Source of the DNA: Methanomassiliicoccales archaeon
Lineage (GTDB): Archaea > Thermoplasmatota > Thermoplasmata > Methanomassiliicoccales > UBA472
Assembly: GCA_028682915.1 (NCBI GenBank)
Contig: JAJRAN010000055.1
Coordinates: 318-64,317, forward strand
Reading direction: 5' to 3'
DNA length: 64,000 nucleotides
Of the stretch, positions 27,290 through 56,068 are shown piece after piece (positions within the stretch are counted from its first letter, which is position 1; the number at the start of each line of letters is the position of its first letter). The notes under the pieces are model-generated. The model had not been told where the DNA came from and made no database searches. It saw nothing but the letters and a program-made list of their open reading frames with translations. The translations under genes and the position numbers were made by a program.

Positions 27290-27658
27290 TCACCTCAGGG
27301 ACTCGTCCTCTTGCATGGCTCCGAAGATGTTGCCCTCGGTGTCGTGGAACATTATCACCCATCCGACCCCTGGTACCGCTGTCTTCTGCTGGACGATGCC
27401 TCCGTGGTTCATGACGATCTTGCGCACGAGCTCGTCGATGTCCTTCACCCCGATGTAGTTCACGACCGTGGCTCGGGGATCCGTCCTGCGCTGGACGCCT
27501 CCGTCTATCCCCTTCTCTCCCTTCTTTCCCGTCCTGGCGAGCCAATATTCGAACGGTCCCTTCCATTCCTCGAAGCTCCAGCCGAAGACCTCCTTATAGA
27601 AGGACATGACGCGCCTGGGGTCCTCGGCGTTGATCTCGAAGTACTCGACCCTTGGCAT
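27290..27658 (-). CDS. VOC family (glyoxalase-like) protein
   Basis: 122 aa. FYKEVFGWSFE...GGIVQQKTAVPGVGWVIMFHDTEGNIFG is typical of the small VOC/PhnB-like family. Confidence 0.85.
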   Translation of the reverse strand: MPRVEYFEINAEDPRRVMSFYKEVFGWSFEEWKGPFEYWLARTGKKGEKGIDGGVQRRTDPRATVVNYIGVKDIDELVRKIVMNHGGIVQQKTAVPGVGWVIMFHDTEGNIFGAMQEDESLR

Positions 27659-27811
27659 GCTCCCTCCTCATGTGACTATGTGGCCTATTACTTCAAAAAT
27701 TATCCCATTCGAAACGCCTTGGCGGAGCACCGGGGCGGCCCGCGGGTCCATCTCGGCAGTTACGAAGCCCCCTGCGCAAGGGTTATCATCGCCACCTCTC
27801 ATCCAATCTTC

Positions 27812-28417
27812 ATGATGGGATGCCACTTCCAGGACCGGCCGTGCCGGCCTGGTCTCTGCCTGAAAGGGCTGCACGACCGACAGGATGGCGCTTCCTTCCG
27901 GATGTGCGACGAGTCGGCCGTGGTCTCGTGCCCCCATCGAGCCTGGGATCATCAGACGCACCTGGAGGTGTGCAAGACCAGATCCGACATGGTCGCCCCT
28001 TGCCATGTGTGCGGTGGTCGTCATCGCACCATGATGGAGGCTTTCCGCTGCTCGGTCTCGGCTTCCATCCGAGATTCATTCCAGGAGGATATCGTGGTCG
28101 ACCCGATCGATACCAGGCTTCCAGATGCAATGAGAGCGAGCGCCTGGCGCATGATCAGGAAAGGGGTGATCGAGCGCGACGGTGGCCAGTGCCGGCTCTG
28201 CGGCAAGGATCTGTCGAGGGCCCCTTCATGGCTGACGGAGGTGCATCATGTCCGTCCGAAGCGCGAGGGAGGGACGGATCACCCATCAAACCTCATCACC
28301 CTCTGCATTATGTGCCATCGGAGGATCACGGCCGACGCTATCATGGCTAGCTTGTCCAGGGATCGATCGCCTTCAGATCGCTTCCTGCCTAGGGAATGCC
28401 TCGAGGCTTTGCGCTGA
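27812..28417 (+). CDS. HNH endonuclease with N-terminal Cys/His-rich extension
   Basis: C-terminal HNH core is RDGGQCRLCGKD...EVHHVRPKREGGTDHPSNLITLCIMCHRRI. The track ORF (from 27311) runs antisense through the VOC gene. I start at the first in-frame ATG after the AT-rich divergent promoter (27812), and ATG 28031 is the alternative. Third-position GC favours this frame over the antisense ORF 27668..28024. Confidence 0.65.
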   Translation: MMGCHFQDRPCRPGLCLKGLHDRQDGASFRMCDESAVVSCPHRAWDHQTHLEVCKTRSDMVAPCHVCGGRHRTMMEAFRCSVSASIRDSFQEDIVVDPIDTRLPDAMRASAWRMIRKGVIERDGGQCRLCGKDLSRAPSWLTEVHHVRPKREGGTDHPSNLITLCIMCHRRITADAIMASLSRDRSPSDRFLPRECLEALR

Positions 28418-29053: not shown

Positions 29054-29383
29054 CTATTGCCTCCTGTATTCCTGATCGACGATGGTCCGATCCTTCTCGG
29101 AAACGCGCTGGACCCTTTGCTTCTCGTGCAGTGCGACGGTTTCGAGATCTGGCCAGTAGAAGTCGTGCACGTCCTTGTTGTCCAGCAGCCCTTGCTGCAC
29201 GTACGTCTGGGAGTGCGCCTCCATCTTGTCCACCATCTCCTTGTACTCTAACAGGACCTTCTTGTGCTTCTCGTGCTCGGGGGTGCCCTCGTCATAGAGG
29301 AGCGCCATCTCCGCCTCCTTGTTCATCTTTTGCACGATCTCTTCCAGTTGCTCCATTTGCTCTTCCGTCAGTTCGATGCCCAT
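29054..29383 (-). CDS. Hypothetical Glu/Lys-rich helical protein
   Basis: 109 aa starting at the ATG preceded by AGGTGA (5-nt spacer). The track's longer version (to 29515) lacks an RBS. No family recognised. Confidence 0.45.
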   Translation of the reverse strand: MGIELTEEQMEQLEEIVQKMNKEAEMALLYDEGTPEHEKHKKVLLEYKEMVDKMEAHSQTYVQQGLLDNKDVHDFYWPDLETVALHEKQRVQRVSEKDRTIVDQEYRRQ

Positions 29384-29701: not shown

Positions 29702-30091
29702 ATGACCGTTTTACTGGCAACGGATGGGAAGCCGCACTCGGAAAAGGCGGTGAAGTATGCCTTCGATTATGCAGCTCTGAGGAAGGACAGCCTCTACATC
29801 GTCTACGCGGTCAGCCCTAAATCGGAGGACGACAAGGACAAGGTCATCAACCATGGCATGGCCGTGCTTGAAGAACTGAAGAAACGCGGGGCCAAGGAGA
29901 ACGTGAAGGTCACGACCATGCTCGAGGCCGGTAATCCTTATGAGGCTGTGCTCAACGCAGCCGACCGGGTGAAGGCCGATGCCATTGTGGTCGGCACCTC
30001 CGGAAAGACCGCCATCGACCGCGTCCTTATCGGCTCGGTGTCCGAGTACATCGTCCGCAACTCCAAATGCACCGTGATCGTGGTAAAATGA
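29702..30091 (+). CDS. Universal stress protein (UspA family)
   Basis: 129 aa. VVGTSGKTAIDRVLIGSVSEYIVRNSKCTVIVV is the ATP-binding G-2x-G-9x-G(S/T) region. Confidence 0.9.
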   Translation: MTVLLATDGKPHSEKAVKYAFDYAALRKDSLYIVYAVSPKSEDDKDKVINHGMAVLEELKKRGAKENVKVTTMLEAGNPYEAVLNAADRVKADAIVVGTSGKTAIDRVLIGSVSEYIVRNSKCTVIVVK

Positions 30092-30116: not shown

Positions 30117-30923
30117 TTACCTTGAGCGTTTCTTGCCAGCCTGGACCTTATCCACGGCCAGCATGAAGGCGTATATGATGGCCTGAGGTCGAGGCGGGCA
30201 ACCGGGTATGTAAACGTCGATGGGCAGTACCCCATCCACCCCGTTTCCCGAGGCGTAGCTGTCCTTGAAGATCCCGCCTGAGCAGGCGCAGGCTCCCATG
30301 GCCATTACCAGCTTTGGATCGGGGACGGCTTTATAAGTCTGCAGGAGCGCGTGCTCCATATTCCTGGTTACAGGGCCTGTGACAAGGAGCACATCGGCGT
30401 GCCTGGGGCTAGCCACGATGTGAAGTCCGAACCTCTCGATGTCATGAATGGCGTTGGTCAAAGAGTTCACCTCGACCTCGCAGCCGTTGCAGGAGCCGGC
30501 ATCGACCTCTCGGATGGATAGCGACCGGCCGAGCGCCTTCTGCGTCTTGGCCTCGAGCCTCCGGCCGAGCGTCTCCGTCGAGGGCTCCCGGTCGACGGCC
30601 CCGGAAACGACCAGATCCTGCCTTTTCCTTGTGGCCAGCTCGAATTCCTTGGTGATGCTTATGGCCCCTTCCGGGCAGGACCTGGAGCATTCCCCGCAGA
30701 AGATGCAGGCGCCCAGGTCGATATGGATGGCGCCATCGAAGGAGAGGATTGCGCCGGTCGGGCATGCTTCGACGCAAGCTTTGTGCAAACTGCATTTAGA
30801 AGAGTCGACGTGCGGGGCGCCCTGGTGCCCATCGTACGGCTCGTAGCGCTCTTTGGGATAACCTGAGGTCACGATGCCCTTCCTCAGCACTCCCGTTTCG
30901 ATAGGTTTCAGCATGCATATCAC
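30117..30923 (-). CDS. Fused 2x[4Fe-4S] ferredoxin (HycF/HyfH/NuoI-like) and hydrogenase small subunit (HycG/HyfI/NuoB-like)
   Basis: 268 aa. The N-terminal half has CSLHKACVEACP and CIFCGECSRSCP. The C-terminal half has NuoB/HycG motifs GSCNGCE, ASPRHADVLLVTGP, GACACSGG, PGCPPRP. GTG start lies 1 nt after the large-subunit stop. Confidence 0.85.
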   Translation of the reverse strand: MICMLKPIETGVLRKGIVTSGYPKERYEPYDGHQGAPHVDSSKCSLHKACVEACPTGAILSFDGAIHIDLGACIFCGECSRSCPEGAISITKEFELATRKRQDLVVSGAVDREPSTETLGRRLEAKTQKALGRSLSIREVDAGSCNGCEVEVNSLTNAIHDIERFGLHIVASPRHADVLLVTGPVTRNMEHALLQTYKAVPDPKLVMAMGACACSGGIFKDSYASGNGVDGVLPIDVYIPGCPPRPQAIIYAFMLAVDKVQAGKKRSR

Positions 30924-30924: not shown

Positions 30925-32514
30925 TCAAAGGTCGCTCCCGGAATAGGACAGGTTGAAGGATTTGTTGATCAGAGGGAAATCGGGGACGATGTTCCCCAGC
31001 ACGGCTGTCTCCATCGCCCTCCAATTGTGGAAGGAGGCGTCACGGACCTTGTGCCGGAGTGGCCTGTTGCTCTCCCCCGAGATCGTCCAATGCACCAGCT
31101 CTCCACGAGGTGATTCGACCAGGCCCATGGACGTCTTCCCTTCCTCCACGTCCACGACGCGGTCGAGAATCGCCCCCGATGGAAGGCCGCCCAATGCCTG
31201 TTCCACGATGCTTATGGACTCGTTGAGCTCGTCCAGCTTGACCAGGAGTCGCGCCTGGACGTCGCCCTCGTACCTGACGGGGACGCGGAAGCTCATGTGA
31301 CGATAGGCGGCATACGGATGATCACGGCGGACGTCCCGGTCCAAACCAGAGGCGCGCGCCACCGGGCCGACCAGGTTGAGGTCCTTGGCCGTGACCAAGG
31401 AGACCGCGCCAGTGGCCTCGGTCCGATCCAATACCGATTGGGTACCAAAGACCAACGAGGCGAACTCCTTCAGATCCAGCTTGAGCCGTATGAGCTCGCT
31501 GAGGGTTCTCTGCAGCTTCTCGGCGGGTATGTCCATCCTCACCCCACCGAGGCAGTTGATCCCTCTCAACAGCCTGCTCCCGGCCAAGTAGTCGTTGAGG
31601 TCCAACGCCCTCTCCCTCATGATGTACGCATGTTGCGCGGCCACGTTGAAAGCCACATCCAGTGCGATTCCGCCCACGTCCCCCAACAGGCAATGGATTC
31701 GTTCCAGCTCGGCGAATGCCGTGCGCAGGTGCTCGGCCCTCTCTGGCGCGCTATGGGTCATGCCCTCGACCGCTTGGCAGAAGGCTAGGGAGTGGGAGAA
31801 GGAATTATCGCCCGATATCCGCTCCGCGAGGAATACTCCTTTCTCGTAGGTCAGACGCTCGAACAGTTTCTCCGTGCCTTTGTGCGCGTATCCGAGGCGG
31901 ATCTCGAGGTTCAGGATCGGCTCGCCGGCAACGCTGAAACGGAAATGCCCCGGCTCGATCACGCCAGCATGCACCGGCCCGACGGGGATCTCGAAGACGC
32001 CCTCGCCCTCGACGCGATGATATGTATAGCTTGAGGGCAGCCGCTGGACCTTCTTCTCCGCCGGAAAGTCCTTGAGGAGTGGATGCTCCTCGATGGGCCA
32101 ATCGTCATAGAGAACTAGAGGGCGGGGGTCAGGATGCCCGACCGGGACCATCCCAAGGAGGTCATGCATCTCCCTCTCGTACCAATCGGCGCATGGGATG
32201 TCGGGGGTCAAGGAGCGGAAGCTAGGATGCTCTGGGTCCATGCTCGTCAAGAGAACGGCGAAGTCCTCCTCCCCTTTGAGCGCCAGGACCAGGACCAGCT
32301 TCAGGTCATTGCTGGCGATTCGATTGTCCACGCCGTGGAAGGTGACGATGCTGGCTCCCCAGAGGTTGTGGATGTGCGCCGCCACCTGAGCGAAGGCGTC
32401 CAGCTCGACCTCCAGCCACATCTCGTTGCCCTTAACCCTCCTCGACTTGATCTTGTCCGACAGTTCCTCGGGCATGGAGCGAAGGATGTCCTGCATCCGG
32501 CTCTCGGTCATCAT
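30925..32514 (-). CDS. HycE/HyfG-like large subunit (NuoC-NuoD fusion type) lacking the [NiFe]-binding cysteines
   Basis: 529 aa counted from the ATG that overlaps the hyfF-like stop (ATGA at 32511..32514). The track's 889-aa ORF is an artefactual 5' extension. The sequence is collinear with group-4 large subunits. At the N-terminal RxCGxCxxxH position it reads ERISGDNSFSH (31804..31821). At the C-terminal DPCxxCxxR position it reads NLSYSGSDL-stop (30928..30954). I verified both by translating the DNA myself. Confidence 0.9.
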   Translation of the reverse strand: MMTESRMQDILRSMPEELSDKIKSRRVKGNEMWLEVELDAFAQVAAHIHNLWGASIVTFHGVDNRIASNDLKLVLVLALKGEEDFAVLLTSMDPEHPSFRSLTPDIPCADWYEREMHDLLGMVPVGHPDPRPLVLYDDWPIEEHPLLKDFPAEKKVQRLPSSYTYHRVEGEGVFEIPVGPVHAGVIEPGHFRFSVAGEPILNLEIRLGYAHKGTEKLFERLTYEKGVFLAERISGDNSFSHSLAFCQAVEGMTHSAPERAEHLRTAFAELERIHCLLGDVGGIALDVAFNVAAQHAYIMRERALDLNDYLAGSRLLRGINCLGGVRMDIPAEKLQRTLSELIRLKLDLKEFASLVFGTQSVLDRTEATGAVSLVTAKDLNLVGPVARASGLDRDVRRDHPYAAYRHMSFRVPVRYEGDVQARLLVKLDELNESISIVEQALGGLPSGAILDRVVDVEEGKTSMGLVESPRGELVHWTISGESNRPLRHKVRDASFHNWRAMETAVLGNIVPDFPLINKSFNLSYSGSDL

Positions 32515-33971
32515 CCACCTCCCGGGAAGAGGCGCGCGATGCCTTCCAGCATGTCGTTCAGTCCCTGGGGCAGGTAGAGGCCCAGGACCAGGACCCCTGC
32601 GAGCAGAGCGACGATGAGCAGGATCGCGCTCAGGTCCCCTTCGCGCCTCCCCTGCTCTTTGGGGGGGTGGCCGAAGACCATCCTCGAAGCGCGTAGGAGC
32701 ACGACGGCGAAGATGATGGCGAGGAGCACCAGGTAGAGCGATATGACCAGCAATTCCCCTGCCTGCAGCCCGGCCATGAGTATGACCAGCTCGCTCACGA
32801 AGATGCCGAAGGGGGGGCACCCGACTATGGCCAGGAAGCCGGCGAACCATAAGGTCGAGGTGATGGGCATGGTCTTGGAGAGGCCTCTTATCTCCTCGAT
32901 GGTCCTGGTCTTCGTCCTGGCATACACCTGGCCAGCGCCGAAGAACAACGCACTCTTGGTCAAGGCGTGATTGAGCATCTGCAGCAGTCCGCCGATGATG
33001 CCCAGAGGCCCGCCGATCCCAAAGCCCAGGGCGATCACGCCCATGTGCTCGATGGAGCTGTAAGCGAGCAGGCGCTTGAAGTCCTTGGCCAGGATGATGA
33101 AGGCCGCGGCGATGGCCATGGAGAGCACGCCGAAAAGCACAAGCAGTCCGCCGGAGAAGCCTGGGCCGAGAGAGGTGGAAGATATCATGTGGTAGCGCAG
33201 GATGGCGTACATGGCGCAATTGAGGAGGACGCCTGAGAGCAGGGCGGAGATGGGGGTGGGGGCCTGCGAGTGCGCGTCGGGCAGCCATGTATGCATCGGC
33301 GCGAGACCGACCTTGGTGCCGTAGCCGACCAGGACGAGGATGAAGGAGATGCGCAGCAGCGTAGGGTCCAGCTGTCCGGCCATGGCCAGGAGCGACGACC
33401 ATTCCAGCGAGCCGCCGCCTTCGCCCAGCTGCTGGATGGAAGAGGCGTAGAGCAGGATCGTGCCCAGGAGGGCCAGGGTGATGCCCACCGAGCAGATTAT
33501 TACGTACTTCCAAGCCGCCTCCAACGAGCTCTCGCTGTTGTAGAAGCTCACCAAGAAGGCCGATGCCAGAGTGGTGGCCTCGATGGCGATCCACATGACC
33601 CCCAGGTTATCAGAGAGGCACACCAGGACCATGGTCATGACGAAGGCGTGCAGCAGGGCGTAGTAGTAGCTTATGCGCTTGGCCCCGAACCTGCCCTCCT
33701 GCAGTTCCCTGCCCATGTAGCCTACCGAATAAAGGGAGGTGGCTAACGACACGATTGCCACCAGCATCAACATGAAGGCGCTGAGCCCGTCCATGTAGAG
33801 CGTCCCCTCGTCCTTGGCGCCGTTGGTGACCACGTCGTATGAGGCGAGCAGCGATGCGGCGAGTAGGGCGACGGAACCGAGGCTGCTGGCCCACTCCACC
33901 TTCCTCCGATCCCTTAGGAGGAGGCAGACGAGCGCGGTCAAGACTGGAATCAGCAGCAGGAGCTCGAGCAT
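32511..33971 (-). CDS. HyfF-like antiporter-type membrane subunit (NuoM/N family)
   Basis: 486 aa, about 14 TM helices. Proton-conducting membrane transporter blocks (WLPDAHSQAPTPISALLSGVLLN, SSIEHMG). Confidence 0.85.
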   Translation of the reverse strand: MLELLLLIPVLTALVCLLLRDRRKVEWASSLGSVALLAASLLASYDVVTNGAKDEGTLYMDGLSAFMLMLVAIVSLATSLYSVGYMGRELQEGRFGAKRISYYYALLHAFVMTMVLVCLSDNLGVMWIAIEATTLASAFLVSFYNSESSLEAAWKYVIICSVGITLALLGTILLYASSIQQLGEGGGSLEWSSLLAMAGQLDPTLLRISFILVLVGYGTKVGLAPMHTWLPDAHSQAPTPISALLSGVLLNCAMYAILRYHMISSTSLGPGFSGGLLVLFGVLSMAIAAAFIILAKDFKRLLAYSSIEHMGVIALGFGIGGPLGIIGGLLQMLNHALTKSALFFGAGQVYARTKTRTIEEIRGLSKTMPITSTLWFAGFLAIVGCPPFGIFVSELVILMAGLQAGELLVISLYLVLLAIIFAVVLLRASRMVFGHPPKEQGRREGDLSAILLIVALLAGVLVLGLYLPQGLNDMLEGIARLFPGGG

Positions 33972-34640
33972 CTAATCCCTCAACCTCCTCAGGAACGAAG
34001 TGTCAAGGGTGTCGAAGGTGCGGTTGATGCGGAAGACGAAGACGCCCATGATCAGCACGGCCACCATGATGTCGAAGAAGACCCCTAGCTCGACGATCAA
34101 GGGCATGCCGTAGCTGAGGGAGAGGGCGGCCATGAACAGGCCATTCTCCATCACCAGGAGGCCGATGACCTGGGTGATGGCCTTCTTGCGGCTGATCATC
34201 ACGAAAAGGCCGATGAGCACCACGGCCAGGGAGAGCGCAAGGGCGCCGGCGGTGATCGTCTCCCCGCTCTGGATGAGGGGCTCGGCCACATAGTATGCCA
34301 AGATGGCCAGTCCTCCCGCGATGAGCAGAGAGGAAGGGGTTCGCACCGAAGGCTCGACGTCGTTGGCCACCTGGATCCGGTCCATCACCCGGTCGATGAT
34401 GCGAGGGATGACCAGCGCCTTCAGCAGGATGGTCAGGGCGGCGACAATGTAGATATGCCAATAGCCGGTGCTGTAGGCGACCGCGGCCGCGAGGAGCCCG
34501 AGAGCCAGGGACTGCAGGGCGAACACCCGGACCAAGGTGCGCATGCGCCCCGTGGCCACGATTAGGAAGGCCGTGAGCAGCACCAGCGCCGCCAGACCGT
34601 CTATCAGATTAACGTCGAGCTCGGCCATCTTCTCCCTCAC
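33972..34640 (-). CDS. HyfE-like small membrane subunit (NuoK-related)
   Basis: 222 aa, about 7 TM helices. The GLLVMENGLFMAAL block matches the HyfE LMENG motif. Overlaps the upstream gene by 4 nt. Confidence 0.8.
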   Translation of the reverse strand: MREKMAELDVNLIDGLAALVLLTAFLIVATGRMRTLVRVFALQSLALGLLAAAVAYSTGYWHIYIVAALTILLKALVIPRIIDRVMDRIQVANDVEPSVRTPSSLLIAGGLAILAYYVAEPLIQSGETITAGALALSLAVVLIGLFVMISRKKAITQVIGLLVMENGLFMAALSLSYGMPLIVELGVFFDIMVAVLIMGVFVFRINRTFDTLDTSFLRRLRD

Positions 34641-35572
34641 AGAACGAAGTACGACATTACCGCCAGGAAGGCGAGCATGAACGCCCCCGTGAGCAGGTTC
34701 GGCAGTCGAAACAGCCTGAGCTTAGCCATGGAAGATTCGATCACGGCGATGACCACAGCCAGGGTCAATAGCTTAGCTAGGAAGACAATCACACCAAGGG
34801 CTAGGGCTGGAGCGGTGATCTCGGTGGCCACGCCCCAGGGCAGGAAAGCGCTCCAAGCGATGGTGACGAACAGGGTGAGCTTGACCATGCTGGAATACTC
34901 CATCAGCGCCAGGTCCTTACCTGAATACTCCAGGAGCATGGCCTCGTGGATCATGGTCAGCTCGAGATGGGTGGAGGGGTTGTCCACTGGCACCCGTGCG
35001 TTCTCGGCGAGGACGGCGATGAGGAAGGCTGCGAATGCCAGCAGCAGGGCGGGCCCTATAAGGCTGGCACCCGAGGTCGCGATGACGCTTGTGACCGAGA
35101 CCAGAGAGGTCGTTCCGGTCAACAATGCCACGGTGAAGAAGGAGAGCAGGATTGCGGGCTCGATCAACGAGGAGACCAGCATCTCCCGGCTCGACCCCAT
35201 GCCGCCGAATGTGGACCCGGCGTCCAATGCGGCCAAGGCCGTGAAGAACCGGGTCATGGCGAAGAGATAGACCAGGACGATCAGGTCCCCTAGGAAGCCG
35301 AGGCTCTCGGTCACGAAGGCGGGGACCAGCAGGGCCGCGACCACCATCGAGATTAGGCATACATAGGGAGTAATGGTGGTGACCCAGGAGGAATCCTCGG
35401 ATACCACCGAGCCCTTGCGCATTAGCTTGGCAAGGTCGAGGTAGGGCTGGTAGATCGGGGGGCCGCGCCGGCTCTGCATCCATGCCTTGAGCTTGCGGAT
35501 TATCCCGGTGAGAAGGGGAGCGAGGGCCAGCAGCGCAGCCGTTTGGATCAGGGCGAGGACAAGGTCGGCCAT
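34637..35572 (-). CDS. HycD/HyfC-like membrane subunit (NuoH family)
   Basis: 311 aa. N-terminal LAPLLTGIIRKLKAWMQSRRGPPIYQPYLDLAKL matches the NuoH/HycD RRGP signature. Confidence 0.9.
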   Translation of the reverse strand: MADLVLALIQTAALLALAPLLTGIIRKLKAWMQSRRGPPIYQPYLDLAKLMRKGSVVSEDSSWVTTITPYVCLISMVVAALLVPAFVTESLGFLGDLIVLVYLFAMTRFFTALAALDAGSTFGGMGSSREMLVSSLIEPAILLSFFTVALLTGTTSLVSVTSVIATSGASLIGPALLLAFAAFLIAVLAENARVPVDNPSTHLELTMIHEAMLLEYSGKDLALMEYSSMVKLTLFVTIAWSAFLPWGVATEITAPALALGVIVFLAKLLTLAVVIAVIESSMAKLRLFRLPNLLTGAFMLAFLAVMSYFVL

Positions 35573-35576: not shown

Positions 35577-37730
35577 TCACCTGAACACCAGAAGAAGGAG
35601 TATGAGGGCGGCGAATATGTACGCCAGGTACCTCTGTACGCTCCCCGTTTGGATTATGCTCGCTCGCCTGGCGACGCCCAGGATGGTGCGCGCCACCGGC
35701 TCGTAGAGATAGGTCTCGAATAACCGTGGTATGCTTGAGGAATAGGTCATGCCCCTCCTCGAATACGGGGAGGAGGTTGGATCTGAGGAGAGACTGCTCT
35801 CCCCCCTGAGGAAGGGGTTGAACACTCGGAGGATGGGCTGGGAGTGGCCGGTCGGGGTGTACTCGTTCCTGGGGCCCAGAGGCGTCCCACAGTCCCAGGT
35901 CTTCCCCTTTACCCGCGGGGTCCTTCCTCCCCAGGACCTGACCAAGATGAAGGCGAATGGGATCATCAGTCCAAGCAATCCAGCCAGCAGGATCGGGGAG
36001 ACGCTGGAGACCTCCCCGCCATCCACTTCCAGGACCCAGCCATCGGTAAGCTGACCGGCGATGGACACGCCGATCACATCCGTGCTGGCCTGGTCCACCA
36101 TGGGGATTATCTGGGCCGCGAGGACGCCGGTGGCCAGGCAAAGACCGGCCAAGATGGACATGGCCAGGAGCAGGCTGCGATGCGATTCTCGAGGATGCTT
36201 GGCCGCCTCGCTCCTGGGCCGGGCCAAGAACACGCTCCCGAAGATGCGCACGAAGCAGGCGGCCGCCAAGGCGCCAGTTAGCGCGAGCATGCCCAGGGCT
36301 ATGGCCATGAGCAGGTTCACTGTCACGTCATGGATGGAGTAGGAGAGGAGAAGGGACTGGAAGATCAGCCATTCGCTGATGAATCCGTTGAAGGGGGGTA
36401 TGGCCGATATGGACAGCACCCCGATGAAGAAGAGGATGCTGGTGTACCGCATGCCCTTCCCCAGGCCTCCCATCCTCTCCATGTCCTTTGTCCCGGTGGC
36501 ATGGACCACCGCCCCCGCCCCGAGGAATAGGAGGGACTTGAACAGGGAGTGGAAGAGCACGTGGAGCAAACAGGCCACCAGGGCCAGGGCGGCGATCTGC
36601 ATCATACCCTGGGCGTAGAATACCATGGCGGCTCCCAAGGCGATGAAGATTATTCCAACGTTCTCGACCGTGGAGAAGGCCAGGGCCCTCTTGATGTCCT
36701 TCTCGGCGATAGCGTAGAGTACCCCCAGCAAGGCGGTGAGGGAGCCGACGAAGAGGGTCAAGAGACCCCACCACATCAGATCGACGTGCAGGAATTGGAA
36801 GGCGGTGCGGATGAGCATGTACACCGCCAGCTTGACCATGACCCCTGACATCAGTGCCGAGACGTTGCTCGGGGCCGAAGGATGAGCCTGTGGCAGCCAT
36901 ACATGGAGGGGCACTATGCCGGCCTTGGCCCCGAAGCCTATCAGCGCGAGAAGGAAGGCGCCGCTTCGGGCCAGCTCGGTCATTCCCTGACCAGCGTACA
37001 GCGATATCTGATGGAAGTCGAGAGAACCTGCCATCAAGGACAGGTACAGAAGGCAGCTTGCGATGCATGCCGTCCCGAGATGGGCCATCACGAGATACAG
37101 CCATGCCGCGGACGCGGCCCCCTCCTCCTCATGCTCGTAGGCTACCAGCAGATAGGAGGAGAGCGACATCAGCTCCCAGAAGACCAGGAAGAGGAAGACG
37201 TTGCTCGACGCCACGACCATGACCATCGAGACCAGGAAGAGGGGGAAAAGCGCGCAGAACTTGGCTATGCTATACCTGCCGATGAACTGCTGGACATAGC
37301 CTAGTGAATAGATGGAGGCTGCGAGGGCCACGATGGAGATGGCGGCGAGGAACAGGGCGGCGAGGGGATCTATGACGACAGCGAACGGCCCGAGGAAGGG
37401 GATGGCGGTGAACTCGAAGCTCATGCTTCCCTCCAGGAAAACGCTGATCGAGGTCAGCAAACCCATGAGTGAGGCAAGGGCCGAGAGCCCGAATGACAGG
37501 TTGATGCAGAGCCGCTCCTTCCTGACCGTGACCAGGGCGGCCACGGTCGCGAGCGCTCCCAACGTGATCGTCGCCGCGAACGAATAGGTCCCTAGCGTTA
37601 CCAGCCACCTCTTCGGGCCTTCTCGCACAGGTCCCAAGGTGGAACCTCGTGCGAGAACGACCCGGTTTTGGCTGGCAAAATCGTCCTTCCTTTTAAGGAT
37701 TTCGTGAGCTTTGATTTCAATAGGAATCAA
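35577..37730 (-). CDS. HyfB-like antiporter-type membrane subunit (NuoL/MnhA family)
   Basis: Up to 717 aa, collinear with HyfB (FWELMSLSSYLLV, WLPQAHPSAPSNVSALMSGVMVK). The track start is TTG 37730. A TTG at about 37637 preceded by GAGGT, or a GTG at about 37628, are plausible shorter starts. Confidence 0.85.
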   Translation of the reverse strand: MIPIEIKAHEILKRKDDFASQNRVVLARGSTLGPVREGPKRWLVTLGTYSFAATITLGALATVAALVTVRKERLCINLSFGLSALASLMGLLTSISVFLEGSMSFEFTAIPFLGPFAVVIDPLAALFLAAISIVALAASIYSLGYVQQFIGRYSIAKFCALFPLFLVSMVMVVASSNVFLFLVFWELMSLSSYLLVAYEHEEEGAASAAWLYLVMAHLGTACIASCLLYLSLMAGSLDFHQISLYAGQGMTELARSGAFLLALIGFGAKAGIVPLHVWLPQAHPSAPSNVSALMSGVMVKLAVYMLIRTAFQFLHVDLMWWGLLTLFVGSLTALLGVLYAIAEKDIKRALAFSTVENVGIIFIALGAAMVFYAQGMMQIAALALVACLLHVLFHSLFKSLLFLGAGAVVHATGTKDMERMGGLGKGMRYTSILFFIGVLSISAIPPFNGFISEWLIFQSLLLSYSIHDVTVNLLMAIALGMLALTGALAAACFVRIFGSVFLARPRSEAAKHPRESHRSLLLAMSILAGLCLATGVLAAQIIPMVDQASTDVIGVSIAGQLTDGWVLEVDGGEVSSVSPILLAGLLGLMIPFAFILVRSWGGRTPRVKGKTWDCGTPLGPRNEYTPTGHSQPILRVFNPFLRGESSLSSDPTSSPYSRRGMTYSSSIPRLFETYLYEPVARTILGVARRASIIQTGSVQRYLAYIFAALILLLLVFR

Positions 37731-38128: not shown

Positions 38129-38650
38129 ATGGAAGATGCGATCGCGAGGAAGGAGATGAGCGCGGCCGTGCTCAAGACCGCGCTGGCCATCGAGGAGTTC
38201 GGCATCAGGTTCTATTCGGAGCTGAGCGACTGTGTCGCTGATGAGAGAGGGAGGGCGCTCATGCGCAGCCTGGGCAGCGACGAGCAGGAGCATGCGCGCA
38301 TCATCAAGAAGGAGATGGAACGCCTATCTATCCGGACGAATGGCTCTGGCGTAGAACCGTTACATGAGTACCTCGAGATCCTTCCAGAAAAGGTCTTCAC
38401 CAGGCCTAAGGACTCCTGCCTCACGGTGGAGGACGAGATAGCCGCCTTGCAGAAGGGCATAGAGGTCGAGATAAATTCCATCAGGATGTATCAGGATGCT
38501 TCATCCAGAGCCCTTGACCCGAAGACCATGAGCACCATCGAGGAGCTGACCCGTTGGGAGCTGAGACATCGAGAGATCCTCGAGGAGAACATGCGCACCC
38601 TCAAGCTGGGAGGAGCTTGGTACGGGTACGGCCCGATATTGGAAGGATGA
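38129..38650 (+). CDS. Rubrerythrin/ferritin-like diiron four-helix-bundle protein
   Basis: 173 aa from the ATG preceded by GGAGGAGG. Paired E...ExxH ligand pattern (AIEEFG / SDEQEHARII / IEVEINS / WELRHREIL). The track ORF start (37865) is an antisense-overlapping extension. Confidence 0.65.
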   Translation: MEDAIARKEMSAAVLKTALAIEEFGIRFYSELSDCVADERGRALMRSLGSDEQEHARIIKKEMERLSIRTNGSGVEPLHEYLEILPEKVFTRPKDSCLTVEDEIAALQKGIEVEINSIRMYQDASSRALDPKTMSTIEELTRWELRHREILEENMRTLKLGGAWYGYGPILEG

Positions 38651-38829: not shown

Positions 38830-39993
38830 ATGGCAAGGTTGCCGAATATTAACAGAGAGTTGTCGGCCTGTCTCCAGTGTGGCTACTGCGTTCGCGTATG
38901 CGACACCTACGCCCAGGAGCCATGGGAATCCAACAGCCCCCGTGGCAAGATATATTACCTGAAGCAGCTGCAGAACAAGACCCCCATCGACAAGATGCTC
39001 GGTCGGAAGGTCGAGGTCGACGAAGAGTTCGTCGAAGCCTTATACAAATGCACTGGATGCGCCGCCTGCTGGTCCGTCTGCCACGTCAGCATCGAGTTCG
39101 CCGAGTTCTGGGAGGTCGTCCGCGAATGGGTGGTGGACCAGGGCAAGGGCCCGCTACCAGCGCACAAGAAGCTGGGCGAGAGCATCCTGGCCAATAACAA
39201 CCCCTACAAGGAGCCGCCGGCCAAGCGCGGGGACTGGTTCCCTTCGAACATCAACAAGGTCGCTATGAACCCCGACGTCTGCTTCTTCGCGGGTTGCACC
39301 GCCTCCTACAGGATGCAGAGGATCCCCCAGGCGGCCGCCACCTTCCTGGACCGCTGCGGAGTGAGGCAGAACATCATGGGCGCCGACGAGATGTGCTGCA
39401 CCTCCCCGATGCTCAGGACCGGGCAGATCAAGGCGTCCCGCGACTTCGCGGAGAACAACGTCCGCCAGACGGAGAAGATGGGGGCCAGGGCCATGGTCAC
39501 CGCTTGCGCCGGCTGCTACAAGACCACGACCCACGATTACAAGCGCTTCTACAGCCGCCCATCCTTCGAGGTCTATCACTTCTCGCAGTACGCGCTCAAG
39601 CTGCTGAAGGAGAAGAAGGTCAAGTACACCAAGAACTATGGAAACATGAAGGTCACTTACCACGACCCCTGCCACCTAGGAAGGCACGCGGGCGTTTTCG
39701 AGGTCCCGCGCGAGGTCATCAAGTCCGTGCCGGGGCTCGAGCTGGTGGAGATGGGCCGCAACCGCATGAGCTCGCAGTGCTGCGGGGCGGGAGGCGGTTA
39801 CAAGTCGCAGTTCAACGAGTTCGCCGTCAACATCGCCGCCAAGAGGGTCAAGGAGGCCATTGACACGGGAGCCGAGCGCATAATCACCACCTGCCCGTTC
39901 TGCGTGCTGAACCTGCAGCAGGGCGCGAAGCAACTTGGCTCCGATATCAAGGTGATGGACCTATCAGAGCTGCTGGCCGAAGCGACGGCTTAA
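38830..39993 (+). CDS. HdrD/GlpC-type (Fe-S) oxidoreductase with two [4Fe-4S] motifs and two CCG domains
   Basis: CLQCGYCVRVCD and CTGCAACWSVCH are ferredoxin motifs. Two cysteine-rich CCG-type domains follow (GC...EMCCTSP...TACAGCY and DPCHLGRH...SQCCGAGGG...TTCPFCV). ATG 38830 follows a GAGGTG RBS (track start is GTG 38809). Confidence 0.8.
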   Translation: MARLPNINRELSACLQCGYCVRVCDTYAQEPWESNSPRGKIYYLKQLQNKTPIDKMLGRKVEVDEEFVEALYKCTGCAACWSVCHVSIEFAEFWEVVREWVVDQGKGPLPAHKKLGESILANNNPYKEPPAKRGDWFPSNINKVAMNPDVCFFAGCTASYRMQRIPQAAATFLDRCGVRQNIMGADEMCCTSPMLRTGQIKASRDFAENNVRQTEKMGARAMVTACAGCYKTTTHDYKRFYSRPSFEVYHFSQYALKLLKEKKVKYTKNYGNMKVTYHDPCHLGRHAGVFEVPREVIKSVPGLELVEMGRNRMSSQCCGAGGGYKSQFNEFAVNIAAKRVKEAIDTGAERIITTCPFCVLNLQQGAKQLGSDIKVMDLSELLAEATA

Positions 39994-45251: not shown

Positions 45252-45290
45252 GGGCAAGGTTTTTTCAAATTGGGAGGTCTACCAGGTACC

Positions 45291-46322
45291 ATGCCTCAGC
45301 GAAAGACCCCCATGACCTATGCAAAGGCCGGTGTGGACATAGACGCCAAGTCGGCGGCCATCGCCTCCCTGGTGAAGCAGCTGAGGTACAGGCGCTCCGG
45401 TCGCGGGAGGATGATGGATATCAAGGGCCAGTTCACATCCCTCATCGACTTCGGCGACGTGGCCTTGACCCTGTGCACCGATGGGGTGGGGACCAAGCTG
45501 CTTATCGCCGAGGCCATGAACAAGTGGGACACGGTGGGCATAGACTGCATGGCCATGAACGTGAACGACACCATTTGCGTCGGGGCCGAGCCGATCGCCT
45601 TCGTGGACTACATCGCCCTGGACAGACCCAACCCCGAGGTCACCGAGGCCATCGGGATGGGCCTCCAGGCCGGGGCGAAGATGTCGGACTGCGAGATCGT
45701 CGGGGGGGAGATCGCCGTGCTCCCCGAGATGGTGAAGGGGGTCGACCTATCGGGAAGCTGCCTAGGCTTCGTGGACAAGGACCGCATCGTCACCGGGGCG
45801 GACATCGAGATTGGTGATGTGATCATCGGGCTGCCCTCATCAGGGGTGCATTCCAACGGCATGACCCTGGCAAGGAGGGTGCTGGAGAGGAACGGCATCC
45901 CCTTGGACCAGAAGATACCTGGATTGAGGGGGAGCGTGGGAGAGGAGCTTCTCACCCCCACCTCCATCTACGTCCGCCAGGTGCTCAAGCTGCTGGAAGG
46001 CACCCAGGTCAGCGGGATGGTGGACGTAACCGGCGGAGGGCTGCGCAACTTCGTGCGCTTGAAGAGGGATGTGCGTTTCGATGTATCGCGGCCTCTGACC
46101 CCCCAACCGATCTTCAAGGTCCTCCAGGGGCTGGGCGGTATCGAGGACAGGGAGATGTACCAGACCTTCAACATGGGCATGGGCTTCGCGGTCATTCTCC
46201 GAGAGGACGACGCGAAGGAAGCTACAAGGGTCCTCGCGAAGGGGGCTAGGGTCGTTGGTTCCGTAGTGGAAGGGGAGGGCGTTGGCTCCTCGGGATTAGA
46301 TCTTGATTATTCCTCTTATTGA
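45291..46322 (+). CDS. purM: Phosphoribosylformylglycinamidine cyclo-ligase (AIR synthetase)
   Basis: TYAKAGVDID, CTDGVGTKL, DCMAMNVNDTICVGAEP, VTGGGL. Start ambiguous among TTG 45270, ATG 45291 and ATG 45312. Confidence 0.92.
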   Translation: MPQRKTPMTYAKAGVDIDAKSAAIASLVKQLRYRRSGRGRMMDIKGQFTSLIDFGDVALTLCTDGVGTKLLIAEAMNKWDTVGIDCMAMNVNDTICVGAEPIAFVDYIALDRPNPEVTEAIGMGLQAGAKMSDCEIVGGEIAVLPEMVKGVDLSGSCLGFVDKDRIVTGADIEIGDVIIGLPSSGVHSNGMTLARRVLERNGIPLDQKIPGLRGSVGEELLTPTSIYVRQVLKLLEGTQVSGMVDVTGGGLRNFVRLKRDVRFDVSRPLTPQPIFKVLQGLGGIEDREMYQTFNMGMGFAVILREDDAKEATRVLAKGARVVGSVVEGEGVGSSGLDLDYSSY

Positions 46323-48607: not shown

Positions 48608-50557
48608 GTGTTAGGGTTGGGAATCTCCAGAAAGGCAGCACATGCCAAGAAGGATGGGACAATGGCGGCCATAGCCGTCGAGAAGCCCGACCCAGCCTCC
48701 ACCAATGATGATTTTGACAAGTCCAAGGAAGACGATCTCCGACGTTGGCTCACGGGCGAGGAGGACAATCTGCTCACCTGGCTCAACGAAGGAGACCGCG
48801 GAGAGACCGAGACCCTCACCCAGGTCGCACATGACTTGGGAGACGACGATGTTCGCGATAAGACCGAGAAAAGCGGCAAGGAGCTCGCCGAACTCAAGCT
48901 TGCAGTGATTGAATTGCTGCGCCGAGGGCAACCCGCGGATGCCGTCAAGGACGAAAGCGTTCCCGCCCTCTCAAGGAGACTGCGGGAGATATCAGAGCAC
49001 GAATCCGGATCACGTTCAGAACTGGACCGTCTTCTACGCAACAACCAGGACCTCAAGAAGGAGTTCGACTCCGCCATGGCCGCCGTGCCCAAGGACCAAC
49101 GAGCCCTAATAAAGAAGCAGATCGAGCTGGCGGAAAGGGAGGCAAGGCTCCAGGCCAAGGAGAGGGAGCGCGCGGAAATGGGGGCCAACGGCAACGGTGT
49201 CGGCGCCTCGTCCATGTCCGAGCTGGAGGAGCGCTTCCAGGCCGAGCTGCGCCAGAAGGAGCTCGAGTTCCAGGAGAAGGAGAAGGACTACCGGGCCAAG
49301 GTCGAGTACCTGGCCGAGGAGCTGAAGAGGAAAAGCCTAGAGGAGCAGCAGAAGGAGGACGAGCTCAAGCTCACCAGGATGACTGGGTCCCAGGCGAACG
49401 TGGAAATGGAGATGAAGCTGAAGGACGTCCAGCTCAAGGAGAAGCGCATGCTCCTCATGGAGGAGGAGATCGCCAGGCTGAAGATAGACGTGCGCGAGCG
49501 CGACGACGAGTTGCGCAAGATCAAGGAGGTCGTGGGCTACAAGGAGCAGGAGCTCCTCCGAAGGGAGGAGGACCTAGACTACCGCGACAAGCTCATGGCC
49601 AGCGAGCGACGGAAGCTGGACGAGGCCAAGCGCGAGGTCACCAACGTTGAAGAGGTGGAGCTGAAGAAGCGCTTGGAAGAGCTGAAATCGGAGGTGCAGC
49701 GGAAGGAGGAGGAACTGATAGCCAAGGAGAAGTTCCTCAACGCCAAGAGCGAAGAGCTCCGACTGCGCGAGTCCGGGGTCATCGATGACGAGATCAAGCG
49801 CCGCGAGGAGGAGCGGGCCATCGAGTTCAACGTGGCCAAGGTCAAGACCGGCAACTCGAGGCTGGACGATCTGCTGCTGGGCGGCATACCCTTCGGTTCG
49901 AACGTGCTCATACATGGTCCGCCATTCATCGGCAAGGAGATCATGATCGATCAGTTCGTGGCCGAGGGACTGAAGAAGGGGATCCCCTGCATTTGGGTCA
50001 TCACCGACAAGACGCCTAAGGACATCCGGGAGGAGATGGCCCCGATACTCTCGGGCTACCCGGAATACGAGGGCAGAGGACTCGTCAAGTACGTTGATTC
50101 TTACTCAAGGAGCATGGGAGAGTCCGCCGACGACCCCAACGCCATCTACATCGAGGAGCCGACGGACCACGACGCCATAATGGCGGCGACGGACAAGCTG
50201 GCCAAGGAATTCAAGGAGAGCCACAGGTACTATCGCCTGGCTTTCCGCTCGGTCTCGACGCTGGTCGCCTACTCCGACCCCAACGTCGCCTTCCGCTTCC
50301 TGAGCCCGTTCTGCGGGCGGCGCAAGCGCGACGGCGCGGTGAGCATGTATGTCATAGAGAAGGGCATGCATGGCGAGCAGGAGATACAGATGCTAGGCTC
50401 AATCATGGACGGCATGGTCGACTTCAAACTGGACCAGCTAAAGAGCTATTTCTCCATCCAAGGCATATCCGACGTCCAATCGCGCTCCTACATCCGCTAC
50501 ACCGTGGGCAAGCATGGGCTCAGCATCGGATCGTTCTCGCTGGACCATATCAGGTGA
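48608..50557 (+). CDS. Long coiled-coil protein with C-terminal KaiC/RecA-like (ATPase-fold) domain carrying degenerate Walker motifs
   Basis: 649 aa. About 400 aa of E/K/R/L-rich heptad-like sequence. The KaiC-like domain spans about 49850..50554 (RLDDLLLGGIPFGSNVLIHGPPFIGKE...). The Walker A position reads GPPFIGKE (49916..49939) and the Walker B position reads RLAFRSVSTL. Start is GTG 48608 or ATG 48662. Confidence 0.75.
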   Translation: MLGLGISRKAAHAKKDGTMAAIAVEKPDPASTNDDFDKSKEDDLRRWLTGEEDNLLTWLNEGDRGETETLTQVAHDLGDDDVRDKTEKSGKELAELKLAVIELLRRGQPADAVKDESVPALSRRLREISEHESGSRSELDRLLRNNQDLKKEFDSAMAAVPKDQRALIKKQIELAEREARLQAKERERAEMGANGNGVGASSMSELEERFQAELRQKELEFQEKEKDYRAKVEYLAEELKRKSLEEQQKEDELKLTRMTGSQANVEMEMKLKDVQLKEKRMLLMEEEIARLKIDVRERDDELRKIKEVVGYKEQELLRREEDLDYRDKLMASERRKLDEAKREVTNVEEVELKKRLEELKSEVQRKEEELIAKEKFLNAKSEELRLRESGVIDDEIKRREEERAIEFNVAKVKTGNSRLDDLLLGGIPFGSNVLIHGPPFIGKEIMIDQFVAEGLKKGIPCIWVITDKTPKDIREEMAPILSGYPEYEGRGLVKYVDSYSRSMGESADDPNAIYIEEPTDHDAIMAATDKLAKEFKESHRYYRLAFRSVSTLVAYSDPNVAFRFLSPFCGRRKRDGAVSMYVIEKGMHGEQEIQMLGSIMDGMVDFKLDQLKSYFSIQGISDVQSRSYIRYTVGKHGLSIGSFSLDHIR

Positions 50558-50612
50558 TCCAAGGCGACGTCAGAATCGCCCTTTCATGCGATTTACTCTG
50601 ACCGATTATAGG

Positions 50613-51047
50613 TCAGGCGACCTCTGGCCCTCTGTAGTCCCCCGGCTTCTTGGGAGCGGGCGCTTGCTGGATGTTGATGTGCGGCATCGGGACAGGGGGC
50701 GGGAGCCTGATGTCCCTGGCGACCAGCAAGGCGGTGGGAATGCAGTTGGGGACGACGGTGTTGTGGACCAGGTTGGCCCACTCTGGAGGCATGGAGTTCT
50801 TCTTGGTCCATTCGTCGATGAGCGCGTCCACGTCTCCTGCCACCACCACTTGGCCCTCGATCTTGATGTAGCCCATGCCCACGTAGTTGGTGGTGAAGCG
50901 GTAGTCGATCACCGCGGTGGATTCGGCCCCCTTCACGATCTGGGTGACGGTGCTGTTGTGGTCCACCCTCACGTTATTTACCTTCTCCCCTGCCTTGGAG
51001 AACCTCTTCGCTTCGATGAAAGCTAACTCGAAACTTTTGACTAACAT
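50613..51047 (-). CDS. Hypothetical protein with Pro-rich C-terminal tail
   Basis: 144 aa with clean frame, directly downstream of and co-oriented with tRNA-Phe. No family confidently recognised. Confidence 0.5.
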   Translation of the reverse strand: MLVKSFELAFIEAKRFSKAGEKVNNVRVDHNSTVTQIVKGAESTAVIDYRFTTNYVGMGYIKIEGQVVVAGDVDALIDEWTKKNSMPPEWANLVHNTVVPNCIPTALLVARDIRLPPPVPMPHINIQQAPAPKKPGDYRGPEVA

Positions 51048-51116
51048 CTTCCCGCCTGCTACCGCATCATAGGGGCGGGTAATAGAAGTTTGCCGAGCAT
51101 GGTCTTAGAAATGGAG

Positions 51117-51189
51117 TGCCGCAGGCCGGACTTGAACCAGCGACTTCAAGATCTTCAGTCTTGCACTCTCCCAACTGAGTTACTGCGGC
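51117..51189 (-). tRNA. tRNA-Phe (anticodon GAA)
   Basis: Reverse complement is GCCGCAG-TA-ACTC-AGTTGGGA-GAGT-G-CAAGA-CTGAAGA-TCTTG-AAGTC-GCTGG-TTCAAGT-CCGGC-CTGCGGC-A. It has a 7-bp acceptor stem, a cloverleaf with all arms paired and a GAA anticodon. CCA is not encoded. Confidence 0.9.
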
Positions 51190-51216
51190 GGGCTTGACCG
51201 AAAAAGGGGAGGGCCG

Positions 51217-51224
51217 TTATAAAT
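51217..51224 (-). promoter_or_regulatory. TATA box for tRNA-Phe
   Basis: The minus strand reads ACATTTATAACGG, with TTTATAA about 27-30 nt upstream of the tRNA 5' end. Confidence 0.55.
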
Positions 51225-51332
51225 GTTCCCCACGCGGCGGCCGGGAGCGAAAGCCCTCGAAAAAGAGGCTTTGAGCGAGCTTTCTAGGACTAACCAGGAA
51301 GGCGTCCTCCAGATGATACTGGCAGCATTACG

Positions 51333-51340
51333 TTTATATA
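51333..51340 (+). promoter_or_regulatory. TATA box for the type-IV-filament operon
   Basis: CGTTTATATATCT lies about 50-60 nt upstream of ATG 51392. Confidence 0.5.
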
Positions 51341-51391
51341 TCTACGAAGTTCTCTTAATCACACCAGACTGGATGGGGGACTGGATTTCAA

Positions 51392-52354: not shown

Positions 52355-52367
52355 TGGAGGCGCTAGC

Positions 52368-55140: not shown

Positions 55141-55148
55141 GTGTTGCC

Positions 55149-56057: not shown

Positions 56058-56068
56058 GGGTGACCAAA

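Follow-up and report, generated by a model that had tools for sequence, protein, structure and literature searches.

The subject of this analysis is a six-gene operon in a 64,000-nucleotide stretch of a Methanomassiliicoccales genome (assembly GCA_028682915.1, contig JAJRAN010000055.1, positions 318 to 64,317; hereinafter the window, with coordinates counted from its first nucleotide). The complex encoded by this operon is a further member of the already described class of complexes termed Ehr (energy-converting hydrogenase-related), and its large subunit, EhrL, possesses neither the NiFe site of hydrogenases nor the quinone ligands of complex I. The identity of the complex and its non-hydrogenase nature are well supported. 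With respect to function, the six-subunit complex is probably a ferredoxin-fed, ion-translocating oxidoreductase that operates without a NiFe center.

The large subunit lacks all four NiFe ligands

The ehrL gene (Table 1) is an intact reading frame that translates without interruption into 529 residues; the NCBI gene call starts at the second ATG, at 32511, and the stop codon occupies positions 30925..30927. The protein consists of a NuoC-like domain (Complex1_30kDa, PF00329, residues 35-155) fused to a NuoD-like domain (Complex1_49kDa, PF00346). The top match of EhrL among PDB sequences detected with HMMER is E. coli HycE (7z0s_E, E 7.8e-82), with which the protein is collinear throughout at 30% identity; P. 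furiosus MbhL, Aquifex NuoCD2 and Thermus Nqo4 rank lower, with E-values of 1e-43 to 1e-47, and MbsL (6u8y_L, E 6.8e-36) is well behind HycE. The AlphaFold2 model of EhrL, built from 110 homologs (pLDDT 89, pTM 0.91), has low confidence only in the beta1-beta2 loop (residues 180-192) and in the last three residues, and the closest solved fold found by Foldseek is again the HycE chain 7z0s_E (TM-score 0.90). These comparisons bear out an earlier note on this DNA, made from the sequence alone, which described the protein as collinear with the group 4 large subunits of the HycE/HyfG type and as containing a NuoC-like N-terminus.

Group 4 [NiFe]-hydrogenases carry the motifs RxCGxCxxxH (L1) and DPCxxCxx(H/R) (L2), neither of which occurs in EhrL. 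In the HMMER alignments, RISGDNSFSHS of EhrL is opposite RVCGICGFAHS of HycE and RMCGICSFSHN of MbhL, and NLSYSGSD is opposite DPCYSCTD of HycE, the four ligand positions being occupied by S234, N237, S523 and G526. No shifted cysteines were found at or beside these four positions in the alignments with HycE, MbhL and Nqo4. Direct translation reproduces both degenerate motifs as the earlier note had read them; the range 31804..31821 that it gave for the first spans R-I-S-G-D-N, the full motif being longer (Table 1). Given that all four NiFe ligands are replaced, H2 chemistry should be impossible for EhrL, and the inference in the same note that a NiFe site cannot form is strengthened by the conservation of the replacement across the family (see below). 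The NuoD-type quinone residues, to which attention had also been drawn, were compared by alignment and are missing as well: H38 of Nqo4 is opposite I186 (followed by E187) and Y87 is opposite G235. Furthermore, EhrL does not reach the NCBIfam equivalog cut-offs for NuoD (233 bits versus 360) or FpoD (197 versus 600), and the absent quinone ligands together with these sub-threshold scores rule out a NuoD or FpoD identity. A protein identical to EhrL is deposited as 'NADH-quinone oxidoreductase subunit C' in another Methanomassiliicoccales metagenome-assembled genome (MAG; GCA_028679885.1, contig JAJRAO010000031.1), and the source annotations of EhrL homologs read 'Ni,Fe-hydrogenase III large subunit'.

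Among the 120 closest homologous clusters, which come from many independent assemblies and extend down to 50% identity, the Cys-less L1 form E-R-x-S-G-(D/Q)-x-x-x-x-H is present in all 117 that could be scored (the region was located by motif search), and the C-terminal signature (N/S)LSY(S/A)GxD(L/M), immediately followed by the stop, is near-universal, with rare variants. The Cys-less proteins in this set include those of M. luminyensis, Methanocella arvoryzae and a Lokiarchaeia MAG. The presence of the same motifs in independent homologs indicates that the ligand replacement is neither a chance event nor a sequencing error. The ratio of nonsynonymous to synonymous substitution rates (dN/dS) of ehrL is 0.11 in the comparison with the 81%-identical ortholog from locus L001 (the loci compared here are denoted by such numbers), so that the gene is under strong purifying selection. 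Thus, EhrL from the window is a normal, selected member of the Ehr family.

Relationship to tail-less hydrogenases

An HMMER scan of 1.84 billion representative sequences detected 9,511 relatives of EhrL with E-values up to 1e-3. Among the best 150 of these (representatives at 50% identity), approximately 100 are Cys-less and show (S/A)-G-D-x in the first region and NKSFNLSY(S/A)GxD(L/R) at the very C-terminus, and 32 contain all four cysteines. The closest Cys-containing representatives, the named ones of which come from Planctomycetota and Desulfotomaculum, reach 46% identity and end with NKSF(N/E)LCYxCxDR, without a C-terminal extension; the NKSFxLxY motif is common to the Cys-less clade and these tail-less relatives. 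The HycE/HyfG-like representatives bear an extra C-terminal tail (13-25+ residues shown). EhrL itself terminates one residue past the aligned Asp of L2, and the HycE chain is about 33 residues longer. The absence of the extension in EhrL, which the earlier note correctly observed, appears from these comparisons to be ancestral and is no evidence of lost function; as an argument against hydrogenase activity it is weak because the nearest Cys-containing relatives, as well as EchE of M. luminyensis, are tail-less too.

The best 150 sequences were aligned with MAFFT (fast setting), and in a rough neighbor-joining tree without support values, which took in no named reference EhrL sequence, EhrL falls within one large, almost purely Cys-less clade that adjoins the tail-less Cys-containing enzymes, with a few partial intermediates. 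This position agrees with the literature, in which group 4f is named as a close phylogenetic relative of Ehr (PMC10284858). The former NiFe site was assessed by comparing conservation in the Cys-less clade with that in the Cys-containing sister group. Relative to the latter, the Cys-less clade is defined by Ser or Ala in place of Cys234, Asp in place of Ala/Val236 (66 of 84 sequences, 79%), a variable residue, small or polar, in place of Cys237, Ser for Cys523, Gly for Cys526, and Leu for the terminal Arg. The beta1-beta2 loop is of the hydrogenase type and contains a Glu-Pro pair (VGPxHAGxIEPGHFR) in both groups. The most plausible scenario appears to be that the Ehr complex descends from tail-less group 4 [NiFe]-hydrogenases of the Hyf/4f kind, with the scaffold kept whole and the NiFe center lost.

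The operon and its iron-sulfur wire

Six genes are tightly packed on the minus strand in the order ehrA-ehrB-ehrC-ehrD-ehrL-ehrS, with ehrL in fifth place (Table 1). The same order is repeated in seven other loci, namely those of Methanocella, M. luminyensis, Lokiarchaeia, three more archaeal genomes and one Acidobacterium. The membrane subunits are of the Hyf type: in NCBIfam, EhrA scores 674 bits, over the HyfB equivalog cut-off of 667, and EhrD (509 versus 610 for HyfF) and EhrC (115 versus 136 for HyfE) are both just below theirs. The charged motifs of EhrD, that is, Glu in transmembrane helix 5 and Lys in helices 7 and 12, are visibly kept in the alignment with MbhH and MbsH.

EhrS scores above the cut-off of the NCBIfam NuoB subfamily and shows similarity to HycF/HyfH at residues 4-110; the fusion with the ferredoxin domain is also found in Methanocella and an Acidobacterium. 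The NuoB-cluster ligands C145, C148, C212 and C242 are invariant in the alignment and include the hydrogenase-type motif GSCNGCE. The second ferredoxin motif is canonical. In the first one, the window, L001 and L008 have His at the position of the second Cys, and Methanocella and L006 have the canonical Cys, so that the cluster at the wire entry may be a His-ligated [4Fe-4S] cluster. As judged from these ligands, the three-cluster Fe-S wire is intact; the catalytic metal site is gone. No electron-input or electron-output module was found to be conserved across all the compared Ehr loci.

Table 1. The ehr operon of the window, its diagnostic motifs and the adjacent genes
Feature	Coordinates	Strand	Description	Evidence
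ehrA	35577..37628	-	HyfB/NuoL-like antiporter-type subunit, 683 aa as called; ORF open to 37730	Pfam PF00361; NCBIfam HyfB; gene call in L030
ehrB	34637..35572	-	NuoH/HycD/HyfC-like membrane subunit, 311 aa	Pfam PF00146, E 1.6e-42
ehrC	33972..34640	-	HyfE-like small membrane subunit with NuoK-like C-terminus	Pfam PF00420; NCBIfam 'hydrogenase 4 membrane subunit', E 4e-33
ehrD	32511..33971	-	HyfF/NuoN/MbhH-like antiporter-type subunit, 486 aa	Pfam PF00361; NCBIfam HyfF 509 bits
ehrL	30925..32514	-	HycE/HyfG-like large subunit lacking the NiFe ligands; NuoC+NuoD fusion, 529 aa	Translation; Pfam PF00329+PF00346; PDB; fold; dN/dS
L1-equivalent motif ERISGDNSFSH	31792..31824 (E231-H241)	-	Cys1 to S234, Cys2 to N237, Ehr-typical D236, H241 retained	Alignment to HycE, MbhL, Nqo4
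L2-equivalent motif NLSYSGSDL + stop	30928..30954	-	Cys3 to S523, Cys4 to G526, terminal R to L, no C-terminal extension	
ehrS	30117..30923	-	N-terminal HycF/NuoI-like 2x[4Fe-4S] domain fused to C-terminal HycG/NuoB-like small subunit	Pfam PF00037/PF12838 + PF01058
First ferredoxin motif of EhrS, C-S-L-H-K-A-C-V-E-A-C-P	30759..30794 (residues 44-55)	-	Second Cys of CxxCxxCxxxCP replaced by His	
usp	29702..30091	+	Universal-stress-protein-family gene, convergent with ehrS	Pfam PF00582
rbr	38129..38650	+	Rubrerythrin-like; divergent from ehrA, co-directional with hdrD; context gene	Pfam PF02915
HdrD-like gene	38830..39993	+	2x[4Fe-4S] + two CCG domains; candidate electron-accepting partner, from synteny	Pfam PF02754 x2 + Fer4
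Conserved 109-aa ORF	29054..29383	-	Downstream of Ehr in L001-L004 and L007, 31-50% identity	

The Ehr class and its relationship to other group 4 systems

The name Ehr was reportedly given by Coppi in 2005 to a complex of Geobacter sulfurreducens. As a class, Ehr was defined by Marreiros et al. (2013), according to the papers that quote the definition, as group 4-like complexes without NiFe ligands (PMC10284858, PMC6349859, PMC10432482), and HydDB was trained to exclude Ehr as homologs that do not metabolize H2 (PMC5037454). The known hosts are widespread and include Geobacter, Margulisbacteria and Saganbacteria, for which a complex with formate dehydrogenase (FDH-Ehr) has been proposed (PMC6349859), comammox Nitrospira (PMC10284858), ammonia-oxidizing archaea (PMC10432482) and, explicitly, a Methanomassiliicoccales MAG described in 2018 (PMC6147122); Methanocella and, in the present analysis, Asgard archaea and further Methanomassiliicoccales join this list. 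The class is thus not new: it has a name, HydDB sets it aside, and Methanomassiliicoccales were known to include a host. The literature reports carry no assigned function for Ehr (PMC6349859, PMC10284858, PMC10432482, PMC6147122).

The Ehr complex of Geobacter sulfurreducens (EhrABCDLS, GSU0739-45) includes a NuoL-like EhrA, a HyfE-like EhrC, EhrL and EhrS, and its proteins are most abundant on formate (PMC7894505). The window complex resembles it in the combination of a Cys-less group 4-like large subunit, a NuoB-like small subunit, and NuoL-, NuoH-, HyfE- and NuoN-like membrane subunits in a six-gene operon, as matched by the published subunit list rather than by sequence. It differs in belonging to an archaeal sub-lineage whose signature, ERISGDNxxxH / NLSYSGNDL, is very uniform, and in having usp as a conserved neighbor, rbr and hdrD upstream in Methanomassiliicoccaceae, and a ferredoxin-like domain fused to the small subunit.

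With the group 4a/4f hydrogenases (HycE of the formate hydrogenlyase FHL-1, and Hyf/Hyd-4), the complex shares the NuoC-NuoD fusion, the membrane subunits of the HyfB, HyfC, HyfE and HyfF types and the HycF+HycG-type wire, and differs from them in having S, N, S and G at the ligand positions, the gained D236 and a terminal Leu in place of Arg. The tail-less Cys-containing relatives from Planctomycetota and Desulfotomaculum are probably of the group 4f type. Unlike Hyf and FHL, the operon is accompanied neither by an FdhF/HyfA module nor by hyp or hycI genes, and fdh and fpo genes are missing as well, among the ORFs scanned in the window (within 10 kb on either side of the operon, plus open reading frames, ORFs, of at least 250 aa elsewhere in the 64 kb). 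The hyp genes are needed by any Mvh or Ech enzyme anyway. An AIRS-domain ORF at 45270..46322 was considered as a candidate for HypE and rejected, being PurM.

Complex I and Fpo (NuoCD, Nqo4, FpoD) have a homologous fold that is also devoid of the NiFe cysteines, and share the NuoB, NuoH and antiporter-like modules with the window complex. The latter, however, has no equivalents of the quinone ligands His38 and Tyr87, and its proximal cluster is ligated through CxxC rather than through tandem cysteines, the CC ligation that is characteristic of cluster N2 of complex I. Furthermore, the operon consists of six genes instead of 11, with only two antiporter-like subunits and without NuoA or NuoJ.

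The last comparison is with MBS/Mbx of Thermococcales (PDB 6u8y), which reduces sulfane sulfur. Like the predicted Ehr oxidoreductase, it is a group 4 descendant with a degenerate NiFe site, an intact Fe-S wire, a ferredoxin donor and a non-proton acceptor; unlike it, MBS/Mbx is far removed in sequence (MbsL, E 7e-36) and carries other substitutions at the NiFe site, and neither an Mrp-type Na+ module, nor Mrp small-subunit genes, nor additional Mbs subunits are present in the Ehr operon. Of the two placements offered in the earlier note, Ehr-type or MBS/Mbx-like, the first stands on the strength of the subunit set and the Cys-less motifs, whereas the second is the poorer match.

Predicted function and alternatives

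A scheme of electron flow can be proposed for the oxidoreductase. Reduced ferredoxin would dock on the 2x[4Fe-4S] domain of EhrS, by analogy with EchF, MbhN and HycF, and electrons would run to the NuoB-type cluster at the interface of EhrL, EhrS and EhrB, a path suggested by the conserved ligands. An acceptor other than H+ would be reduced at or near the emptied pocket, and this redox step would drive, or be driven by, ion translocation through EhrA and EhrD. The best local candidate for the acceptor is the HdrD-like CoM-S-S-CoB reductase encoded divergently upstream of ehrA, and the Usp protein with an ATP motif encoded next to ehrS is a candidate accessory subunit or regulator.

Several observations weigh against this scheme. 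At the former NiFe site, D236 is the sole conserved polar or catalytic gain, and position 237 is variable, a pattern that fits lost chemistry equally well as a new substrate; an emptied and poorly re-specified pocket suggests that there is room for a redox-gated antiporter without a terminal acceptor. The link to HdrD is one of synteny within a single family, and no HdrD is encoded at the Ehr loci of Methanocella, Lokiarchaeia, L033 or Acidobacteria. In 'Ca. M. intestinalis', hdrD1 seems to be located beside ech with no room for ehr, judging by the consecutive accession numbers in the table of Borrel 2014. Finally, the ferredoxin:heterodisulfide activity is assigned in the literature to the Fpo-like complex together with HdrD (PMC6147122).

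The specific version of the scheme, in which electrons pass from ferredoxin through EhrS to HdrD for the reduction of CoM-S-S-CoB while EhrA and EhrD pump ions, is unlikely. It is prompted by the gene order: rbr and hdrD are divergent from ehrA in the window as well as in all Methanomassiliicoccaceae loci whose flanks extend far enough, at EhrL identities down to 53%, and the arrangement in which Rbr, HdrD and Lhr are encoded in succession and read away from the ehr genes is kept in L001-L004, M. luminyensis (L029), L031 and L032. To judge from accession numbering, none of the three hdrD genes of M. luminyensis appears to be located beside fpo, and the HdrD-like gene that adjoins ehr is probably hdrD1; in addition, a citing paper mentions ferredoxin:heterodisulfide oxidoreductase activity in membranes of this organism. 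This conservation is, however, limited to a single archaeal family and might simply reflect inheritance of the gene order; Ehr operons elsewhere come without HdrD, and hdrD1 seems to persist in gut Methanomassiliicoccales without Ehr, as the table of Borrel 2014 suggests. Besides, between the window and L001, HdrD is 96% identical but EhrL only 81% (76-92% for the Ehr subunits), so that the constraints on the two are not coupled. The broader proposal that, in free-living Methanomassiliicoccaceae, Ehr together with the rubrerythrin-like, HdrD-like and Usp proteins would make up a so far unrecognized ferredoxin:heterodisulfide oxidoreductase that converts energy, parallel to or replacing the Fpo-like/HdrD system, strikes us as unlikely; if true, this would be the first function assigned to any Ehr complex.

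Alternatively, Ehr might reduce a membrane-soluble carrier, such as a quinone or a methanophenazine-like or other lipid, at the EhrL/EhrS/EhrB interface, in the manner of complex I or Fpo. The complex contains the triad (large subunit, NuoB, NuoH) from which complex I builds its quinone chamber, and menaquinone is made by many bacterial Ehr hosts. Moreover, a liposoluble carrier has been predicted in Methanomassiliicoccales (Borrel 2014). The substitutions H38 to I186 and Y87 to G235, the NuoD and FpoD scores far below the cut-offs, the hydrogenase-type CxxC ligation in EhrS, and the hydrogenase-type beta1-beta2 loop with its EP glutamate all argue to the contrary and make a lipid acceptor quite unlikely.

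Another hypothesis pairs Ehr, as the membrane component, with a formate dehydrogenase in an FHL-like arrangement that links formate oxidation to ion translocation. The Ehr operon of Methanocella, with frh upstream, is followed by usp and then fdhC-fdhA-fdhB, and the membrane arm of Ehr is akin to Hyf, which belongs to formate hydrogenlyase; the abundance of the Geobacter subunits on formate (PMC7894505) and the FDH-Ehr proposal for Margulisbacteria and Saganbacteria (PMC6349859) point in the same direction. This hypothesis is nevertheless very unlikely for the complex considered here: neither a formate dehydrogenase nor a formate transporter is encoded among the scanned ORFs of the window, the Ehr loci of Methanomassiliicoccales, Lokiarchaeia and Acidobacteria also come without formate dehydrogenase, and, without a NiFe site, electrons from formate still would have no acceptor.

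A role without net redox catalysis is, in our estimate, very improbable too. In this case, Ehr would be an Mrp-like cation/proton antiporter that senses, or is gated by, the redox state; its Fe-S arm would report the redox state of ferredoxin, and Usp would modulate the activity. The former active site has indeed been vacated without being rebuilt (the cysteines gave way to Ser or Ala, a variable residue, Ser and Gly, with D236 as the sole gain), no acceptor module is conserved across lineages, and the stress-family protein with an ATP motif is the only widely conserved neighbor. All twelve cluster-ligand positions are, however, kept under strong selection, which would be costly for a mere sensor, and we know of no characterized precedent. 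Least of all, despite the collinearity and 30% identity with HycE and the annotation of homologs as 'Ni,Fe-hydrogenase III large subunit', can EhrL be taken for a hydrogenase with shifted cysteines or another metal site, an assembly error or a decaying pseudogene, all extremely unlikely given the alignments, the same Cys-less motifs in more than 100 independent sequences, the intact frame with dN/dS of 0.11, and the treatment of Ehr in HydDB as not metabolizing H2 (PMC5037454); the ligands are thus neither misplaced nor lost through sequence errors, the two sequence-based refutations that the earlier note had named.

Two more general issues are connected with Ehr. Wrong labels, either 'Ni,Fe-hydrogenase III' or 'NADH-quinone oxidoreductase subunit C', are routinely attached to Ehr complexes, so that predictions of H2 metabolism come out inflated. 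What Ehr does is also an open point in the account of how complex I evolved from hydrogenases, and the instance in the window does not settle it. The interest of the locus stems from this point and from two testable leads, the Usp partner and the HdrD neighborhood; the lineage has a relative in culture, M. luminyensis, in which the same, orthologous locus (55% identity) is found.

Conserved genomic neighborhood

The additions of the present analysis to what is known of Ehr are modest and concern the neighborhood, namely an orthologous usp gene that travels with the operon across archaeal orders and the rbr-hdrD pair that is divergently located upstream throughout Methanomassiliicoccaceae. The usp gene, whose product contains the ATP motif G-x2-G-x9-G-S, adjoins ehrS in 6 of the 7 archaeal Ehr loci examined, the window included, and is convergent with it in five; the other copies are located at L027:12375-12770, L029:12645-13061, L031:10408-11307, L032:10443-10859 and L033:10416-10847. 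The window protein is 64% identical to the Methanocella copy, a value that exceeds the EhrL identity for the same pair (55%), 59-60% identical to the Methanomassiliicoccales copies and 40% identical to a second copy in L031. In L033, usp is co-directional with ehrS and overlaps its stop codon by 4 bp; this in-operon Usp is only 30% identical to that of the window, which implies a weaker orthology. No usp is present at the Lokiarchaeia and Acidobacteria Ehr loci examined. Considering this linkage, Usp may be a so far unrecognized accessory or regulatory partner of archaeal Ehr.

The HdrD-like protein encoded on the other side of the operon matches the TfrB/HdrB-like models of NCBIfam below the cut-offs. 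Downstream of Ehr and Usp, a complete Cys-containing Ech operon follows directly in M. luminyensis (L029:13195-18348), L031 (11426-16458) and L002 (approximately 12700-17400). EchE of M. luminyensis keeps ERVCGICSFHH and ends with DPCICCTDR, without a C-terminal extension; the presence of all cysteines in this protein, encoded beside Ehr, indicates that the lineage keeps them wherever H2 chemistry is required. In the window, L001, L003 and L004, this position downstream of Ehr holds no Ech operon but only the small ORF at 29054..29383 and a GNAT gene. This ORF has no match in Pfam or NCBIfam. Its possible origin as an EchD/NuoC remnant, raised by a tblastn homolog within the Ech operon of L002, was dropped because a BLASTP comparison with EchD of M. 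luminyensis revealed no similarity (E 4.8).

Other genes in the window

Rfam and tRNA scans of the window yielded one tRNA-Phe and nothing else. A long but dubious ORF on the plus strand (27311..28417) ends, at approximately 28100..28417, with a clear HNH-nuclease motif (EVHHVRPKREGGTDHPSNLITLCIMCHRRI); the motif lies in a stretch of about 860 bp that bears no called gene in the NCBI record. The gene at 7501..8265 (+) encodes a fusion of a hemerythrin domain with a rubredoxin domain at the C-terminus and, together with the rubrerythrin-like, peroxiredoxin and Usp genes, suggests the presence of several oxidative-stress functions in the window. Finally, the region 48608..57748 (+) encodes a KaiC-like ATPase, two T2SSE-type ATPases and a T2SSF-type membrane protein, which constitute an archaeal type IV pilus or archaellum-like cluster, adjoined on the opposite strand by a very long ORF of 1,867 aa (58301..63904).

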